Shown: in pieces, positions 3,001 through 42,000 of the stretch
Position numbering within the stretch: the stretch's first letter is position 1
Layout of the letters: each line of letters starts with the position of its first letter
NCBI GenBank assembly: GCA_039815185.1
Contig: JBCBZT010000027.1
Location: forward strand, 1-64,000
Reading direction: 5' to 3'
DNA from: Cyanobacteria bacterium P01_A01_bin.123
GTDB taxonomy: Bacteria > Cyanobacteriota > Cyanobacteriia > Phormidesmidales > Phormidesmidaceae
Length of the DNA stretch: 64,000 nt
Program-made: the position numbers

Positions 3001-6000
3001 TTGTGTAAAAAATCTTTTCCTGACCATGATCATCAATAATGGGACGAGAGAGCATTTTGGTAATCAGACCATGCTGACATTCCTGAGAGAAATTTCTCAC
3101 TGCCTCTGGATTGTTGGTAATGAGTGTGCGAGGGATATCGATACTCAAATTTTGTGCGGTTTGGAGCTGAAGTTGCTTATTATTTGCTCGAATTTGATTT
3201 GATAGAGGATCAACCTGAACTGTGTTGAGACTAGCCAGCATCCCTTCAAGCATCGTGCAAGATTCTTGAATTGAGGGATTTCTGAATTGCGATTCTATTG
3301 TGGGAGGAATTAGTGCTCCAGTCTCATTTTTAGCTGCATTACGCAGAAAACGATTCCAAACAGTGGACACCTCGTCCAATATCAGCTTTTCTTCATTGGC
3401 GAAGAGAATTATCTGCTCATGATCTAAGCTGTACTGAATTTCTAAACCGACCTCAGTGGGAAATGCATCAATATCAAAACGGAAAGAATTTTGGCCTCGA
3501 TCTGAAATCTCTTTCTGAAGTGCTGAAATACTCTTGTCTTTACTGTCGGTGACAATCAGAATCGTCATTATCAAATTTTTAATAGCAGGGTAATATAAAC
3601 CGCATCCATGTTGAGTGTAGAGTTTAAGAAAATGTTCTGTAAACTTAAAAGTCTTGATATACAAGCGTTCTAAGCAGATCTCAAAACTACGGTTTTCAAG
3701 CTAGACGCGGTTTAGCTTCTGGGTTGGATTGAATAAATCGTTTAAATCAGAAGACTTTATCAGGGATCAGTTTGGTGAATAATCTTTGAGCTTGAGGCTC
3801 CTGGCTTTCTAGTTGAGGTGTCCTTCAATAGACCGAAAAAGGCCAACTATTATTTGTTGGGTTTAGATCTTGATTTTTACCTGATAATTATGCACCTCGT
3901 GGCGACTTCGACTTCTGAACTAGATCACCTCCCCTCTGGATTGCATGAAGCTGATCTGCTGGAATAGGCTCTAGCAAGAGTGTAAATAGTGGCGCGGTTG
4001 CAGTTTGAGTGACTTGCTTTTTATTCTTGGAGTTTTGATTGTTCTGATCAGGCATGACTTCTACCGTCTTGGATAGTTCAGTGAATCCTCACACCTTGGT
4101 TGGTCAGGGAAAATCTATAACTGGTTTTTAGTTTAGAGGTCGGCTTTTTAGTTTAGAGGTCGGCTGGCCACTTCCCAACTAGATCACTTCCCCCCTGGAT
4201 TGCATGAAGCTGATCTGCTGGAATAGGCTCTAGCAAGAGTGCAAATAGTGGCGCGGTTACAGTTGGAGTGACTTGCTTTTTATCCTTGGAGTTTTGATTG
4301 TTCTGATCAGGCATGACTTCTACCTTCTTTGACAGTTCAGTAAATCCTCACACATGGGGTGGTTAGAGAAAAGTCTATGACTCAGACATATGCTCAGTTT
4401 AGGCTGATACCCTTTCCACTTAATGCAAATCCTATCTTTAAATTGAGAAGAAAGTCGGAAAGCAAACATAATCATGTGTTTTCATACACCGTTGTTAACT
4501 CATGCTGCTTTAGGATTGCCTAGCCGCATTGTTTCGACAGAGCTGCGTGTTGGGGTGTTCAGGGCCAACGGTGGCTTCAAAGCAGGCGATCGCCCGCTCA
4601 AAGAGTTCCCCTGCCTCCGTGCTCCGATCCATTTTCTGTAAGAGAGAAGCCAAATTATTGAGGCTAATGGCGACATCGGGATGTTCCGATCCCAAGAGGG
4701 TCTCTTTAAGCTCCAAGGCTCGACGATAGGCTTGCTCTGCTGACTCAAGCTCACCTTTGGCTTGCAATGAGGCGGCTAAATTATTGAGATTAATCGCAAT
4801 TTCATAGTGAATCGGGCCAAATTGCTGCTCAAAAAAGGCGATCGCGGCTTCAAAATAAGCGATCGCGTCGTCATACTGTTCCAGTCCATGCAGAATCGAA
4901 CCTAAGGCGGCTGCGTCGGCAATGGTTTTGGCATGATCAGCTCCCAGTAAATCCACATGGAGCTGATAGGACTTACGGGCATAGGGTTCGGCCTCGACAT
5001 AATGACGACGGGAATGGTTGAGCCCCCCTAAATTGTGATAAATCGTGGCGACCTCAATATGTTGCTCACCATGGCGCTCAATTAGCGCCGCCAGTGCGGT
5101 CTGGTAGAGGTCTTCCGCCGCCTCAAATTTGCCCCAGTATTTATAGACAATGGCTAAATCGTTGAGCAGCCGAATCCAAATGGGTTGATGACGTAGGCCC
5201 TGATCTTCAACGAGTTGAATGACTTGCTGAAAGACCTGTTCGGCCTGGGGATAGTGGCCCTGAATGCGGGCTAAGGTGCCTTGCTGAGACGAGAGTTTCA
5301 GCTCTAATGGCAACGAGATCTTGGCTGGATAGTTTGCTTTGATCTCGTTTAGGGCGAGTTGAGCAGCTTGGAGCTGAGTTTGGGCTTCGCCGTAGCGGGC
5401 TTGGGCTTCTAAGCTGGTAATCAAATGACTTTGCAGCTTCACCTGCAGTACCCAACCAACTGGAGTAGGGGGCAAGTCAGCCAGCAATTGCTTGCAAAGT
5501 GCTTCTGCCTCAGAGTGGTTATCTTGGGCCTGCAAGTGAGTGACTTGGTTCATTTGCAGTTGCCAATCACTTGTAGTAACCATCACGAATACTGTGTCTT
5601 GACCATCGTTTCATTATGGTTGCGGGGCAGACCAGCACCGACTATCTCAGTCAATGCTGCTTCACTCAGCTCCGTGATATCAAGTAGCTGCATGTCTGCA
5701 TCCCAGTCACTATCTGTTAAATCAATGTCTGAAAAAATTAACTCTAGTTGTGGTTTCTTAGCTTGGGATTGCTGTTTCATCGGACTGACTCAATTAAGGA
5801 ATGTGCTAGATATATGTCGTATGCCACATAGGGTATGGAGCAATCGAGAAGAATTCGGGAAGCCCCCTACGAAGACATGAACATCACCGGGGTCACGGGC
5901 TTAAACGAAGCCCAAAAAGTAACACTGAAAGCCTTGGGGGCTGCGTCGGGCAACGACTTGGATAGGCTTTAACTCGATCACTGAGCGTAATCGGCATCTT

Positions 6001-39000: not shown

Positions 39001-42000
39001 TGCTTTGTCCCTTTTCATATATTCCTGGGGGGCTTTAAGCCCCCTTTCTGGTATGCCCCTTGGGCTATATTCTGGGGGACTTTGAAAGGTTTATTCCCCC
39101 AGAATGGGGGGGCTAGGGGGGTTAAGTCATACCGCTATTCAGCAACGCCAGAAGTTGAATCATCCCTCAAGACATCGTGGGCTACCAGACCAGCCCCCTG
39201 ATATTGCCAAAAGATCTGTTTCGCTTAGCGGCTCTAACTGGTTTTGCAGTAGTTGGTAGAGGCAATCATTAGAGAACTGATAGCCCTTTTCAGCGCCAGC
39301 GCTTTTAATCAGCGCGATCACTTCTAGTAGACTATTCGTTTCCTTGATTTTCTGTCGCAATTGCGCGTCACTGAGCAACGCTTTGATTTGGCTTAGCATA
39401 ATGCTTATCTCCTTTTGCAATGAAGGTAAAATTGTACAAATCTTGATTGATTTTGTGAGGCGCGATCGTGTGCTAAAGGCAGCGCGCGATCGCCCGCTCT
39501 GCTCTAGCCAAGACGCGAATTATTCTTCACCAATGGGGTCATCATCCTCTTTGGATTTCCCACCACAGATGAGGGCTAAGTCATCTTCTGAGAGTTCTTG
39601 AATGGACTTGTTGTTGATAGCTTTACTCGCCATCGTTTCATTGTGGTTTGCCAAGTCAACACCTGCACCGACGATCGCTTCTAAATCCTTCTCCATCAAT
39701 TCAACAATTTCAGGGGATTTAGGGGGCGTTTTTTGAGGCTTTTGCTTTGATTTCTTCTTCATGATTTTTTCTCCTTAATAGAAGGTTTTTTTCTAAGTCT
39801 AAGAATTGCCTTCTTGACTTGGTTTTACTGTATTAAATAATCGGGAATAAGTAGGGAAGAAAAATGCTTTTAGAGCAGGTTTTTTGAGCTATTTTTCCAT
39901 ATAAAAAGCGATCGCATTTAGCAAATCAATAATGCGATTGCTTTCGTTATTTATGACAATGATTAATGATGATTGACCTGGCCACCAGCCATTGTCAATC
40001 CGAAATCCTTAACCTTATGCCGCCTAAAAAACCTTGCAACTAAGTGCAAGCATCTCATCTAGAAAACTGTCATAGGCATCCCAAACGGCCTGCATCTTTA
40101 AGTTGATTAGATCGTGGGGCGCACTCAGTTGTTCTAATCGGCGCGTTAACTGCATCACATCGCCAGCATGATCAGCCTCAACTGCGATATATCGCCTCAG
40201 CCAAGCTAAATCATAGGCAGAAATTGCCTGGGTTCGTTCGATTTGGGCTTGAATTGCTAATGCTAATTGATAGGCACAAATCTTGCCCGCGAGTAACGCC
40301 CCCAGGGCTAAGAACGGCTCTTGATCGGTGTAGTAACCTTCAAGTTGTTGCTTTAGATTTGTCCCTGGACTCTTAATCGCAACGGTATCAAACTGACTAG
40401 CTGGAACAGGTTGCAATCGCCGCCAGGGATTGAGGGCGTAATAAAGCCGATCAAACAACACGCGATGAATTCGTTCAGGCTTGCCATGGCCCAGCTCATC
40501 GTAGAGCTGCCGGACCAAAACACAGCTAATGATTTCATCGTCAATGTGGCAGAGCATCGTTGAGAGCCACTGGGCCATATTGCTGTGGACCTGCCGCAGA
40601 TTATGGAAAAGCAACCATAGGCTGGTGAGATCCAGCGGTTTGGCCTGGAGCCACTCAAAGTAAGGATGGGTGGCAACCTCCCTGTGCTCGAAGGACTTGA
40701 TCAGGATTTCTAAACTTTGGGGGTAATCCATAGACGGGTGCCCATTCATGAGCTGGCCTGTCACAACACCGGAGGGCTGGGGTTCAATTAGGGTTAAGGT
40801 TTGATGGGCCATCTTGTTTTCCTGATGTGCAGATACGCGATTGATCTTTGGAGGGCACAACTATTGCTCAATTCTGCTCATCATCGTTTCATTGTGGTTT
40901 AGGCCGCAGTTGTCAATCTCGCCACACTCATCTCCGCAACCACCACCTGCGATCTTTTCTAGATCTTCTTCACCTAGTTCAGCGATCTGAGCTGACCCGG
41001 ATTGAATAGATGCTGTTGTATTGACTATCGTTTCGTTATGATTAGCTCCTAACTCAGGGTCTGTACTATGACCAGAACCACTTGCGATCGCCGCTAAGTC
41101 TTCCTCACTTAGTTCAATGATTTGGACTGACTTAGATTGAGTGGTGGCTTGCAAATTTTTAACCGCATTAACCATCGTTTCATTATGGTTATAGCCTAAA
41201 GCACCTCCTGCAATTCCCTCTAGATCTTCTTCTGCTAATTCAATTAGTTTTTGTGGTGAGATTTGAGCAGCAGAGGGCTGTTTTTTAGGCTTGGTTTGAT
41301 GTTGTTTAAGAATTGTCATGGGTTTGTCTCTGTAGGGTTTCATAGATGTGTCGGCTGTGTGACACTCATGTCTCAAGCCTATTGAATTAGATGGTATTTG
41401 TCGCTACAAAAAAGTCACGGATTTAGTCATGTGACCTCATAAGCTATCCTGAGCTGGACCTTATTGATGGGAGATAACCCTGACAGAATCTGGCATCTAG
41501 ACATGCCTCAATCACAAAGAAAATTGAAAAAAAAATCAAGCAGAGCCCTGTTGGACAACTGCAACCTCATGTCATCTCATACAATCCTAGGGACGACTAG
41601 TGTTAGCCGTCTTCCTCCCGCTGTACCTCCGTTGCCCTAGAATGGACCTTGAAACCATTCTCACCCTTGTGAATGATGCGATGTCTGCAAAGATTGGTAG
41701 ACCGCTGAATGATGCCGAGCGGGTGCTGTTCAAGGGGGCCTGGTACGGGCAAACCTATGGGGTCATTGCGGCTGAATCCGGCTATGCGTCCAGCTATCTC
41801 ACCCGAGTGGTGGGGCCAAAGTTCTGGAAAGATCTCAGTCAGACGCTGGATGAAAATGTCAGCAAGACCAGCTTTCGGCCTGTTATTGAGCAACGCTATG
41901 CCCAGATGGCAAGCAGGTCATCCCATGACACATTGCCTTTGCCGTCGATTTCGCCAACCGCTTCTCCGACCGCGATCGCTGCCTTTAGATCCAGCCAATT

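Follow-up and report, generated by a model that had tools for sequence, protein, structure and literature searches.

The window, i.e., the whole 64,000-nucleotide stretch of DNA analyzed here, contained 31 NHN[EK][TM] motifs in a six-frame scan, all on the minus strand between positions 5607 and 41190. In fifty shuffled versions of the window, the motif occurred 0.04 times on average (maximum one). The 31 motifs were carried by 11 ORFs, the same counts as in the genome-wide survey's note. Outside the window, the whole 8.09-Mb genome held only two more matches: one was a decayed NHNET unit on contig C16, and the other looks like chance. The survey's start of the cluster at 4153 was not upheld, as the first gene there is a graspetide-type precursor (Table 1).

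Table 1. Genes and features of the NHNET peptide cluster and its flanks in the window.
Feature	Position	Strand	Evidence or remark
Graspetide-type precursor adjoining MvdD-like ATP-grasp ligase	4153–4314		Not an NHNET gene
TPR protein (candidate partner), 358 aa, kinesin-light-chain-like TPR_10/TPR_12 superhelix	4510–5586	-	Pfam TPR_12 8.4e-51, TPR_10 7.8e-40
65-aa single-unit NHNET precursor	5583–5780	-	Motif scan
HDO-cupin fusion, 416 aa, flanked by NHNET genes	5978–7228	-	Pfam Haem_oxygenas_2 4.5e-25, Cupin_2 7.8e-16
481-aa precursor, 9 NHNET units	7365–8810	-	Motif scan; NCBIfam bacteriocin_sig 9.9e-10
146-aa precursor, 2 NHNET units, last leader + acidic RSKEDDEP tail	8987–9427	-	
142-aa precursor, 2 NHNET units, last leader + acidic tail	9603–10031	-	
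WD40-repeat protein, 1198 aa, divergent from module 1	10576–14172	+	Pfam WD40 8.1e-169
ScyB-like (tryptophan-type) amino-acid dehydrogenase	14152–15306	-	NCBIfam Trp_DH_ScyB 3e-153 (510 bits, under model cut-off of 600)
GRAS-type Rossmann protein, 470 aa, N-terminal leader-core-NHNET unit fused	15291–16703	-	Pfam GRAS 4.8e-42, residues 116–428; NHNET encoded at 16464–16478
Array of 11 small NHNET-free genes with double-glycine leaders	16891–19572	-	
266-aa precursor, 4 NHNET units + acidic tail	19604–20404	-	
Nif11-leader peptide, LanA-like, core WSGSPRCLEG	20543–20890	-	NCBIfam leader_Nif11 7.3e-4
81-aa precursor, 1 NHNET unit + acidic tail	20899–21144	-	
Small HDO-fold protein, module 2 copy	21397–22245	-	Pfam Haem_oxygenas_2 1.6e-5, below cut-off
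295-aa precursor, 6 NHNET units	22246–23133	-	NCBIfam bacteriocin_sig 1.6e-11
WD40-repeat paralogue, divergent from module 2	23485–27117	+	51% identical to 10576–14172
Second HDO-cupin remnant, cupin end only, by insertion-sequence transposase	27199–27516	-	85% nucleotide identity to 5948–6265
115-aa ORF, 1 NHNET unit, truncated copy of GRAS-fusion N-terminus	38651–38998	-	
Nif11-leader peptide, module 3 copy	39160–39420	-	NCBIfam leader_Nif11 2e-5
80-aa precursor, 1 NHNET unit + acidic tail	39520–39762	-	
Small HDO-fold protein, module 3 copy	40024–40860	-	Pfam Haem_oxygenas_2 2.7e-9
171-aa precursor, 3 NHNET units	40861–41376	-	
WD40-repeat paralogue, divergent from module 3	41600–45376	+	55% identical to 10576–14172
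LanM class II lanthipeptide synthetase	45425–48817	-	NCBIfam lanti_2_LanM 2.2e-299

Each NHNET unit was comprised of a double-glycine leader, a short variable core and a closing NHN(E/K)(T/M). The leader-like segment ended in GG, AG or GA, and the closing N-H-N-E-(T) was near-invariant; in the 65-aa precursor, for example, a leader ending in LTEIVGAG preceded the core LPR, NHNET and the tail MVKTQYS. The survey's description of units iterated within one polypeptide held: the 481-, 295-, 266- and 171-aa proteins are genuine multi-unit precursors with the nine, six, four and three units claimed. A leader regular expression identified 47 segments of the double-glycine type, spread over 26 genes that are small or repetitive; their number (35 in the earlier count) depends on the expression used. 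The median distance between the last NHNET motif and the protein end was nine residues. Eleven distinct cores contained C-x4-C and 13 contained two or more Cys, again as previously counted; eight of the nine units of the 481-aa precursor had C-x4-C cores. Within the motif, Thr varied most (34 of 61 single-residue variants) and was replaced mostly by Ile, Ser, Met or Val.

It is extremely improbable that the repeats are untranslated, whether they are taken as repeats at the DNA level or as an artefact of annotation. All motifs lay in long open frames of one strand, and synonymous codons (AAC/AAT, CAC/CAT) varied across the motif DNA while the residues were fixed. The residues were also kept across phyla though codons and spacers differed, and curated models matched the leaders, namely TIGR01847 (bacteriocin_sig; above cut-off) and lantibiotic-leader models.

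The survey had grouped the genes into three paralogous modules. Of these, modules 2 and 3 are not independent because they represent a single 2.36-kb duplication (20228–22579 vs. 38846–41195; 92.5% nucleotide identity). The copies described as near-identical were so, at 94.6% for the small HDO proteins and 96.5% for the Nif11 peptides. Every module in the genome, including the decayed module on C16, had a divergent WD40-repeat gene. The N-terminal part of the WD40-repeat protein of module 1 resembled a STAND-type NTPase, its residues 125–330 matching the NCBIfam FxSxx_TPR model in the N-terminal part of the latter, and this protein is presumed to be a regulator. The array of small genes contained seven with a (K/R)(P/S)KEDD tail, three of a PINIVRNG type and one other, with internal duplications of 78–93% nucleotide identity; the seven, at 45–52 aa, are the acidic-tail genes of about 45 residues noted earlier. 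The dehydrogenase was 73% identical to a gene adjoining the NHNET gene of Leptothoe spongobia. The Leptothoe GRAS orthologue was 74% identical to that of the window but lacked the fused NHNET unit.

The likely substrates of the LanM are the Nif11 peptides. Alternatively, the Cys-containing units could be ordinary class II lanthipeptide substrates of this enzyme, with NHNET incidental. The window LanM is 4 kb away from module 3, and a LanM adjoins NHNET and TPR genes in a relative (L156) and in metagenome locus L076. The lantibiotic-leader matches and the 13 cores with at least two Cys also fit such a role. However, every LanM locus seen in full had its own Nif11-type LanA (the window has two, L156 one), and the L156 NHNET protein adjoining LanM was Cys-free. 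Several C-x4-C cores (CPPDHC, CPEEEC, CPIDQC, CPWELC) contained neither Ser nor Thr, the motif Thr was itself the most variable position, and the window LanM matched only one of the 121 metagenome loci listed. We consider this explanation very unlikely.

Haem-oxygenase-like (HDO) enzymes occurred in two arrangements within NHNET operons: the HDO-cupin gene between the 481- and 65-aa genes, and a small HDO gene directly after the 295- and 171-aa genes. The stop of the 295-aa precursor abuts the small HDO reading frame, whose likely start is MAHQ at 22197. The second HDO-cupin remnant included a 70-aa ORF (27205–27417; Pfam Cupin_2 8.9e-7). The predicted structure of the module 3 small HDO (pLDDT 81) confirmed the HDO fold at the level of the model, with CADD, HrmI and PolF as best PDB matches (TMq 0.6–0.7). 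The HDO-cupin retained the E-x9-H, E and H-x3-D-x2-H pattern. The metal-ligand set had been called invariant or nearly so; this does not apply to the two small window HDOs, in which two or three of the six canonical ligand residues were replaced. In the module 2 copy (alignment A3), the first-helix His was Asn, the third-helix His was Tyr, and Lys stood where the Pleurocapsa homologue has Glu; Tyr and Lys occurred in both copies and Asn in one. The only close homologue outside the genome (P0161/P0162, Pleurocapsa sp. MAG, 51% identical) kept the full three-His, three-carboxylate pattern and had a leader-core-NHNET unit fused in frame at its N-terminus.

These observations bear on the possibility of a new RiPP class in which an HDO di-metal maturase oxidatively modifies the cores or the NHNET of every unit. 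The two operon arrangements, the remnant of a further HDO-cupin copy, the Pleurocapsa fusion and the fold matches argue for it, and a review records the suggestion that HDO enzymes act in the modification of ribosomal peptides (PMC13108848). Against it, there are two rather than three independent adjacencies in the genome because modules 2 and 3 stem from one recent duplication, and the ligand substitutions of the small HDOs also speak against it. Window HDO queries matched none of the 121 metagenome NHNET loci listed, and Haem_oxygenas_2 was absent from 98 NHNET-neighbor proteins scanned. Among five other NHNET-bearing genomes, the small HDO query found nothing and the HDO-cupin query gave weak matches in two (E about 1e-5 to 1e-6), none adjoining NHNET genes. 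Relatives elsewhere were fused to or sited with enzymes of another kind; HDO-cupin relatives in three other genomes (50–52% identity) had no NHNET-like peptides within about 1.5 kb on either side. A general HDO maturase is therefore doubtful. The HDO enzymes are lineage-specific and not the defining partner of the NHNET family; since they sit in NHNET operons and one carries a fused unit in Pleurocapsa, a lineage-specific tailoring role is plausible. Of the link proposed by the survey, the adjacency thus stands and the status of defining enzyme does not.

The survey's note had confined the precursors to this genome. A profile of the NHNET unit instead matched 389 protein clusters at E ≤ 1e-3 among 1.84e9 (65 at ≤1e-10 and 7 at ≤1e-30), and a DNA scan found at least 121 metagenome loci with tandem NHNET motifs. 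The DNA pattern CG-x-NHNET-x-V matched eight genome loci. One of these is probably a chance match; the other seven had multi-motif NHNET genes and came from Blastocatellia, Pyrinomonadaceae, Leptothoe spongobia and a gammaproteobacterial MAG. Relatives outside this genome include P0004 and P0009–P0019. By record title, the family spans three phyla, with loci in Acidobacteriota, in other cyanobacteria and in the gammaproteobacterial MAG. No description of an NHNET-motif peptide family was found in the literature. The claim of multi-unit, double-glycine-leader precursors with a conserved closing motif was thus sustained, whereas their confinement to one genome and definition by HDO were not. This is a widespread family, so far unnamed and unstudied.

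The recurring neighbor of NHNET genes is a kinesin-light-chain-like TPR protein, which the survey's note had not named. A TPR gene adjoined the NHNET gene in six of eight genome loci, and all-against-all clustering placed TPR in 62 of 129 loci. The metagenome loci listed included 104 non-redundant loci, 39 of them informative (at least 1 kb downstream); TPR was present in 28 of the 39, directly downstream and on the same strand in 27, and missing in 11. No TPR gene lay within 10 kb of the Leptothoe NHNET locus, and the window had a single TPR gene alongside its 11 NHNET genes. In the window, the start codon (ATG) of the TPR gene overlaps the stop codon (TGA) of the 65-aa NHNET gene, an arrangement that indicates translational coupling. 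A genome of the same family had the gene order LanM, NHNET, TPR, its TPR being 67% identical to that of the window. Against a profile built from 35 non-cyanobacterial NHNET-linked TPRs, the window TPR was the only full-length match in the genome and had the best single-domain score (329 bits; all others ≤178). By plain tblastn against acidobacterial partners, a TPR protein on contig C82 scored equally because TPR_10/12 repeats are consensus-like; only the full-length profile separated the two.

Accessory enzymes differed by lineage: HDO, SET domains (L084, fused to TPR; L100), PAP2/VCPO-like proteins (L007, L008, L012, L070), LanM, and GRAS with dehydrogenase, the last pair common to the window and Leptothoe loci. 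Recurrent regulators at the NHNET loci listed were an ECF sigma factor (21–25 loci) and a Ser/Thr kinase (21–26 loci). Export genes recurred as well: a C39-peptidase ABC transporter was present in L042, L086 and L100, HlyD-type genes in L005, L042, L066 and L086, and ABC fragments in L034 and L076. No exporter lay inside the window's peptide cluster; the genome's two peptidase-containing ABC exporters were on C92 and C128.

The reading we prefer, with evenly balanced confidence, is that a widespread family of exported multi-unit peptides has undergone lineage-specific expansion in the window, and that in this family NHNE(T) docks the TPR protein and accessory enzymes vary. A peptidase-containing ABC exporter would cut the polypeptides after each double-glycine site, releasing numerous short core-NHNE(T)-tail peptides. 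NHNE(T) would be a short linear motif at which the co-transcribed TPR protein docks; this protein may retain the precursor while it is processed or exported, or bring in the lineage's tailoring enzymes. HDO-cupin, the small HDOs, GRAS with the ScyB-like dehydrogenase, and LanM would be lineage-specific accessories outside the system core. A complex prediction of the TPR protein with residues 30–65 of the 65-aa precursor scored 0.44 (best of three controls 0.01), with at least 80% of contacts shared between runs and partner pLDDT of at least 47. Of 157 solved complexes, 116 reached the mark used, as did 2 of 215 mismatched pairs; only 18 of the 157, but both passing mismatches, did so at scores ≤0.60. 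The prediction thus lends weak support to TPR binding of NHNET. It is equally conceivable that the motif is invariant because chemistry or cleavage, rather than docking, takes place there.

A signaling system of the RRNPP kind would also employ a TPR protein, here as receptor for secreted NHNET peptides released in multiple copies from a polyprotein, with output via neighboring regulators, namely ECF sigma factor and Ser/Thr kinase in Acidobacteriota and NTPase-WD40 proteins in the window; we regard it as unlikely. The small peptide gene directly adjoining the TPR gene, the recurrence of sigma factor, kinase and divergent WD40 genes, and the hydrophobic, signal-peptide-like N-terminus of acidobacterial precursors fit this scheme, as does a TPR fold that is a short-motif receptor fold. 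However, Pfam and the fold model gave no DNA-binding or other output domain in the window TPR. RRNPP-kind signals usually diverge between strains, whereas here one pentapeptide is kept across three phyla and the variable residues fall outside that motif. In favor of the preferred docking reading, the window TPR resembles known peptide receptors in fold: the AlphaFold model of the window TPR (pLDDT 97) had its best PDB matches in APPBP2, the RxxGP degron receptor, to which its fold is similar (TMq 0.84), and in the cargo-peptide receptors KLC1/2, whose fold it resembles.

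In total, 31 copies of the NHN(E/K)(T/M) motif were found in 11 ORFs on the minus strand of the window, between ~5.5 and 41.4 kb, against a mean of 0.04 copies over 50 shuffles of the window sequence. Elsewhere the 8.09-Mb genome held just two more matches, one a decayed unit interrupted by an in-frame stop, on contig C16, and the other to all appearance a chance match. Each unit in the window ran from a double-glycine leader segment (..IELSEEDLEAIVGG) through a core of 3 to ~18 residues to NHNET. The motifs, leaders and multi-unit genes reported in the genome-wide survey's note are thus real, and its reading of NHNET as the closing element of the unit agrees with the median of nine residues between the last motif and the protein end.

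The leader fit LS-x2-(E/D)L-x2-I-x-GG, and 47 leader-like segments were recovered from the window by regular expression. The leader consensus, ending in GG, GA or GS and with conserved hydrophobic residues at positions -4, -7 and -12, was present in the window units. The bacteriocin_sig model TIGR01847 was matched above its cut-off of 15.7 bits by the 481-aa gene (9.9e-10) and the 295-aa gene (1.6e-11), and the CTB family bacteriocin model NF038167 was matched at 52.9 bits (cut-off 32); the NCBIfam scans gave no curated model for the NHNET family. The C-x4-C pattern was found in 11 distinct cores. Located between the modules were 11 small double-glycine-leader genes without NHNET, seven of them with acidic (K/R)(P/S)KEDD tails, and the same tail closed several multi-unit proteins. 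A protein atlas search with the 295-aa precursor as query gave no match at 0.9 or above and nothing informative. Four marine-metagenome DNA runs from one study contained positions 15200-23200, and no RNA run was among the sequencing runs listed for that segment.

Three modules were present, as previously described, with the qualification that modules 2 and 3 represent one 2.36-kb duplication (92.5% nucleotide identity). The NHNET region had also been drawn to begin at 4153, a start that has to be moved: the gene at that position belongs to a separate graspetide-type system. Among the other gene sets of the window, a menaquinone/phylloquinone set (methyltransferase, MenF, MenD, MenB, MenE and others) adjoined the NHNET genes, and this synteny was kept beside the NHNET genes of Leptothoe spongobia (L009 1240-8357) and of a same-family genome (G521, L156 15759-19096) at 67-93% amino-acid identity. 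Downstream of LanM lay a Rieske oxygenase and a lipid-type cluster, which comprised an ACP, two AMP-ligases, one of them carrying a fused fatty-acid desaturase, and a pair of NAD-binding reductases, of which one had a TubC docking domain.

Features of the window, with their positions, strands and supporting matches (HDO, haem-oxygenase-like di-metal oxidase)
Feature	Position	Strand	Match or setting
Graspetide-type system	2573-4314	minus	ATP-grasp ligase and small precursors; separate from NHNET family
MvdD-like ATP-grasp ligase	2573-3664	minus	MvdD pre-ATP-grasp 1.4e-26; TIGR04184 6.6e-119, 397 bits (cut-off 475)
Two graspetide precursors, 53-55 aa	3888-4055, 4153-4314	minus	91% nucleotide identity; PLF(T/A)LLLEP leader segment
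TPR partner	4510-5586	minus	ATG overlaps TGA of 65-aa NHNET gene (TGATG)
65-aa precursor	5583-5780	minus	
HDO-cupin	5978-7228		Haem_oxygenas_2 (Pfam) 4.5e-25; inside NHNET operon
481-aa precursor	7365-8810		
Small HDO, 282 aa, module 2	21397-22245		Haem_oxygenas_2 1.6e-5, below cut-off; inside NHNET operon
295-aa precursor	22246-23133		
Remnant of second HDO-cupin	27199-27516		
Transposase ORFs	27594-28650	minus	
Menaquinone/phylloquinone set	29235-37343	plus	
Small HDO, 278 aa, module 3	40024-40860		Haem_oxygenas_2 2.7e-9; inside NHNET operon
Rieske oxygenase and lipid-type cluster	48802-58827	minus	
BrnT-type ribonuclease toxin gene	61597-61938	plus	Pfam 1e-29

The precursors had been taken as confined to this genome, which does not hold. 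A unit profile (33 columns, built from 52 units) searched against 1.84e9 proteins returned 389 cluster representatives at E<=1e-3, 65 at <=1e-10 and 7 at <=1e-30. A word-indexed protein search found multi-unit NHNET proteins in a Leptolyngbya sp. MAG and further assemblies, together with signal-peptide-like repeat proteins, one labelled Pyrinomonadaceae bacterium, built of units such as GGCEEFGCG-x-NHNETMV. The DNA pattern for C-G-x-N-H-N-E-T-x-V matched eight loci in species-representative genomes, seven of which held multi-motif NHNET genes: Blastocatellales, Blastocatellia, Pyrinomonadaceae (three loci), a gammaproteobacterial MAG and Leptothoe spongobia. The eighth match fell in a ComFB protein, apparently by chance. 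In another cyanobacterial MAG, the ComFB-domain protein at L011 9964-10509 (-) ended ..ATQCGSNHNETIVGT..; either the match arose by chance or an unrelated protein bears one NHNET tag.

A DNA pattern scan yielded at least 121 metagenome loci with two motifs 126-156 bases apart, and one metagenome ORF contained as many as 16 motifs. The tandem pattern occurred in 1 of 120 genomes of the same order and in none of 400 other sampled cyanobacterial genomes; the family is rare within cyanobacteria. The precomputed label PF28158.1 was carried by six GG-leader-type relatives and was absent from the acidobacterial relatives. The decayed single unit of the window's own genome (MKEQKKTTELLQSIAEAE-stop-AKVNGG..MSINNHNETLL) lay at ~5390-5600 (+) of its locus, L004 (G000:C16), and another GG-leader peptide, with GINHRLSL, followed at 6163-6366. 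As a text word, 'NHNET' returned no relevant paper, and no description of the motif or its pairing with a TPR protein was found in the main texts of the searchable literature; supplementary precursor lists may hold such sequences.

Exact NHNET was counted 360 times in 140 representative proteins. Single-residue variants in the same proteins fell at the first Asn (12), His (2), the second Asn (7), Glu (6) and Thr (34), those at Thr being mostly Ile, Ser, Met and Val. Because the variants concentrate at Thr, the core of the motif is N-H-N-E. An N-glycosylation sequon (N-E-T) was rejected as a general explanation, since Thr is the most variable position (34 of 61 variants, against 2 at His), and the same variability told against Thr chemistry such as dehydration, phosphorylation or an N-O acyl shift. 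The commonest spacing from a Gly-Gly-type site to the motif was three residues, which would place the Glu at position 7, and very short units occurred outside the window (KAGG-IGF-NHNET-LAVRSDV, VIAPA-LTD-NHNET). A lasso-like ring from a new N-terminus to the motif Glu was rejected in view of core lengths of 0 to ~28 residues; no lasso-type cyclase family was among the scanned neighbours.

The recurring partner of the peptides was a protein of tetratricopeptide repeats (TPR). Pfam scans placed a TPR_10/TPR_12 protein of 290-370 aa next to the NHNET gene in six of eight genome loci, and BLAST with the window proteins found TPR in 43 of 121 metagenome loci, among the matches listed. When all ORFs were clustered without bias, the peptides alone outranked the TPR cluster, which spanned 62 of 129 loci. 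Most metagenome contigs were short, so only informative loci were counted, namely the 39 of 104 non-redundant metagenome loci, among the matches listed, with at least 1 kb downstream of the NHNET ORF; TPR was present in 28 of these 39, directly downstream on the same strand in 27. Plain tblastn failed to single out the window's TPR partner because another TPR protein of the genome scored alike. A profile of 35 non-cyanobacterial NHNET-linked TPR proteins gave it 329 bits in one domain, and other ORFs of the genome at most 178. In the same-family genome (L156) the order was Nif11 LanA, LanM, a four-unit NHNET protein without Cys, and a TPR protein 67% identical to that of the window.

A SET-domain methyltransferase was fused to the C-terminus of an NHNET-linked TPR protein at L084 1059-2711 (+), and a lone one took the usual TPR place directly downstream of an NHNET gene at L100 3736-4407 (-). 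Larger TPR frames at L034 and L038 were rejected as enzyme fusions, being high-GC open frames with no real extra domain; L084 was the only true TPR-SET fusion.

The model of the window TPR protein (pLDDT 97, pTM 0.93) was all-helical over residues 5-357, forming a TPR-like superhelix. Its best PDB matches were APPBP2 with an RxxGP degron (TMq 0.84), kinesin light chains with cargo peptides, and LGN. The peptide LPRNHNETMVKTQYS was named as a candidate ligand. Complex prediction of the TPR protein with residues 30-65 of the 65-aa precursor scored 0.44, against 0.01 for the best of three controls, with at least 80% of contacts agreeing between runs and a partner pLDDT of at least 47; this lends weak support to binding. 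Of 157 solved complexes, 116 reached the mark applied to such predictions, as did 2 of 215 mismatches, and scores of 0.60 or below accompanied a pass in only 18 of those 157 complexes and in both passing mismatches. Since the fold matches receptors of short motifs and the complex prediction points weakly the same way, docking of the TPR protein on NHNE(T) would be the most likely mechanism.

Regulatory genes also recurred. A large WD40-repeat protein, its N-terminal part resembling a STAND-type NTPase, was divergent from every module in the genome, the decayed one on C16 included (there a fourth paralogue, at 1270-4860 (-) of L004). The Acidobacteriota counterparts were an ECF sigma factor together with a Ser/Thr kinase bearing PD40 or TPR domains, and by BLAST each of these two types was found in 21 of 121 metagenome loci, among the matches listed. 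Such neighbours fit regulated production. They also keep alive the alternative that the NHNET peptides act as signals, as does the TPR gene beside a peptide gene, a feature of RRNPP systems; the output domain of those systems (HTH or phosphatase) is absent, however, Pfam giving the window TPR protein only TPR-type families.

The HDO enzymes, which the genome-wide survey's note had placed at the centre as iron enzymes, are local additions of uncertain activity and not general partners of the peptides. Queries with all three HDO proteins matched none of the 121 metagenome NHNET loci by BLAST, among the matches listed. The small HDO query found nothing in five NHNET-bearing genomes, Leptothoe included, and two weak matches only in 120 same-order genomes; the HDO-cupin query gave weak matches (E ~1e-5 to 1e-6) in two of the five, elsewhere than the NHNET genes. 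Relatives of HDO-cupin in three other genomes (50-52% identical) had no such peptides within ~1.5 kb on each side. A relative of the small HDO (33% identical) formed the C-terminal domain of a 631-aa protein at L160 (G290:C15) 9845-11737 (-), with no peptide genes nearby; by eye, the N-terminal 400 residues of that protein resemble an aromatic prenyltransferase. Outside the genome there was a single close homologue, P0161/P0162 of a Pleurocapsa sp. MAG (51% identical, annotated as an iron-containing redox enzyme); it began with an in-frame unit, IELSQEDLAAILGIG-DGRDSVTF-NHNET, and this fused unit favours a link between HDO and NHNET.

A haem-oxygenase-like helical fold was supported by the best matches of the HDO model (CADD, HrmI, PolF, BesC and UndA). 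The HDO ligand pattern comprises three His and three carboxylates, as described in the HDO review PMC13108848. In a six-sequence alignment all six ligands were kept by HDO-cupin and Pleurocapsa P0161. Both small window HDOs had Tyr in place of one His, and Lys at the position of the second-helix Glu of P0161, and the 282-aa enzyme additionally had Asn in place of another His; the second-helix difference is tentative because its column depends on shifting an alignment of only 15-16% identity by one residue.

The remnant of a second HDO-cupin was directly adjoined by transposase ORFs, which suggests that this copy was lost through insertion. A fourth HDO of the genome, at L148 (G000:C119) 9836-11758 (-), was fused to a KAS-III-like domain and adjoined by a DUF6999 protein and a sulfotransferase; it was rejected as a peptide-linked enzyme given the fusion and the lack of GG peptides nearby.

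The window GRAS-type protein had an N-terminal unit, and its Leptothoe orthologue (74% identical) was without one; this protein and the Pleurocapsa HDO seem to have acquired the NHNET tag themselves. The ScyB-like dehydrogenase matched at 3e-153, below the model cut-off. GRAS and dehydrogenase form a second lineage-specific accessory set, because the same pair precedes the 497-aa NHNET gene of Leptothoe; queries with the two proteins matched none of the 121 metagenome loci by BLAST, among the matches listed. PAP2/VCPO-like proteins followed TPR in four loci (L007, L008, L012 and L070), other neighbours (proteins of 316-324, 253 and 441-471 aa) recurred in at most five loci each, and many NHNET loci were without any enzyme. 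A recognition scaffold served by interchangeable tailoring enzymes would be expected to give this picture of varied enzymes around a constant peptide-TPR pair.

LanM lay 4 kb from module 3 and also adjoined NHNET genes in L156 and in locus L076, a placement that raises the alternative of NHNET units as class II lanthipeptides modified by LanM. Against this, each LanM-bearing locus seen in full also held a Nif11-type LanA, the NHNET protein beside LanM in L156 had no Cys, several C-x4-C cores were without Ser or Thr, and the motif Thr was the least conserved position. BLAST with the window LanM found it in 1 of 121 metagenome loci, among the matches listed. The alternative does not hold for the family as a whole and may apply to single Cys/Thr cores of the window genome; the most plausible substrates of LanM are the Nif11 peptides, which perhaps share an exporter with the NHNET genes.

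The NHNET precursors, with their multiple units and double-glycine leaders, are of a new kind. That much of the earlier interpretation stands, with the amendment that the family is widespread and that its recurring partner is TPR. We further put forward, as a doubtful but possible reading, that NHNE(T) and TPR together form a recognition logic new to ribosomal peptides: a stand-alone TPR scaffold would read a follower motif closing each core, taking the role of the usual leader-binding domain and recruiting interchangeable enzymes (HDO, HDO-cupin, SET methyltransferase, PAP2/VCPO-like, GRAS-type), in a new RiPP superfamily over at least three phyla.

A near-invariant five-residue motif, carried by hundreds of peptide-gene clusters that range from Acidobacteriota in soil to cyanobacteria in the sea and paired with a dedicated, putatively peptide-binding TPR protein, suggests that secreted peptides are made or sensed through a widespread step that has gone unstudied. 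Should the TPR protein read the motif, the pair would represent a novel mode of recognition for ribosomal peptide precursors and a handle for genome mining, in which motif and TPR locate the loci and the variable neighbours offer new enzyme chemistry. The window genome is well suited to experiments because it was the richest case encountered, with 31 units, three HDO-fold enzymes and one enzyme-precursor fusion.

Export genes accompanied some loci: C39-peptidase ABC transporters, often with cyclic-nucleotide-binding domains, in L042, L086 and L100, and HlyD-type genes in L005, L042, L066 and L086. Pfam scans found no C39-peptidase ABC transporter in the window; two C39-peptidase exporters were encoded elsewhere in the genome, on contigs C92 and C128. 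Synechococcus EbfG proteins are reportedly cyanobacterial GG-motif peptides. The NHNET units share their double-glycine leader with such peptides, class II bacteriocins and ComC, a group whose export runs through peptidase-containing ABC transporters (main text of PMC3140520). Unlike these systems, the window repeats the leader up to nine times per polypeptide and closes each unit with an invariant NHNE(T), and in the NHNET family a TPR gene follows; the words 'repeat', 'tandem' and 'TPR' are absent from the main text of PMC3140520. SznF-type enzymes (PMC13108848) have the HDO-cupin domain order of the window enzyme, which differs in its setting among ribosomal peptides. HDO sequence matches in the PDB were remote (CADD 3.8e-5, HrmI 5.3e-5), with SznF absent among 24 matches.

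Kinesin light chain and APPBP2 have the same predicted TPR fold, and Pfam TPR_10 and TPR_12 match the window partner; they are eukaryotic and bind other ligands, whereas binding of NHNET by the window TPR protein is weakly predicted. The FxSxx-COOH TPR protein (NF040586), assigned by NCBI to a short-peptide system, likewise has TPR_10/12 and was the best NCBIfam match of the window partner (5.2e-35; 121 bits against a cut-off of 300). It differs in its length of 830 aa, with an N-terminal part absent from the window protein, and its peptides have no motif in common with the NHNET peptides. Cyanobactin precursors of the PatE type are multi-core RiPP precursors with flanking recognition sequences. 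As in the window, they hold several short variable cores per precursor, each bracketed by conserved sequences. No subtilisin-type protease or macrocyclase family was matched among the scanned proteins of the window and the relatives' loci; the conserved neighbour that sets the NHNET family apart from the PatE type is a non-catalytic TPR protein.
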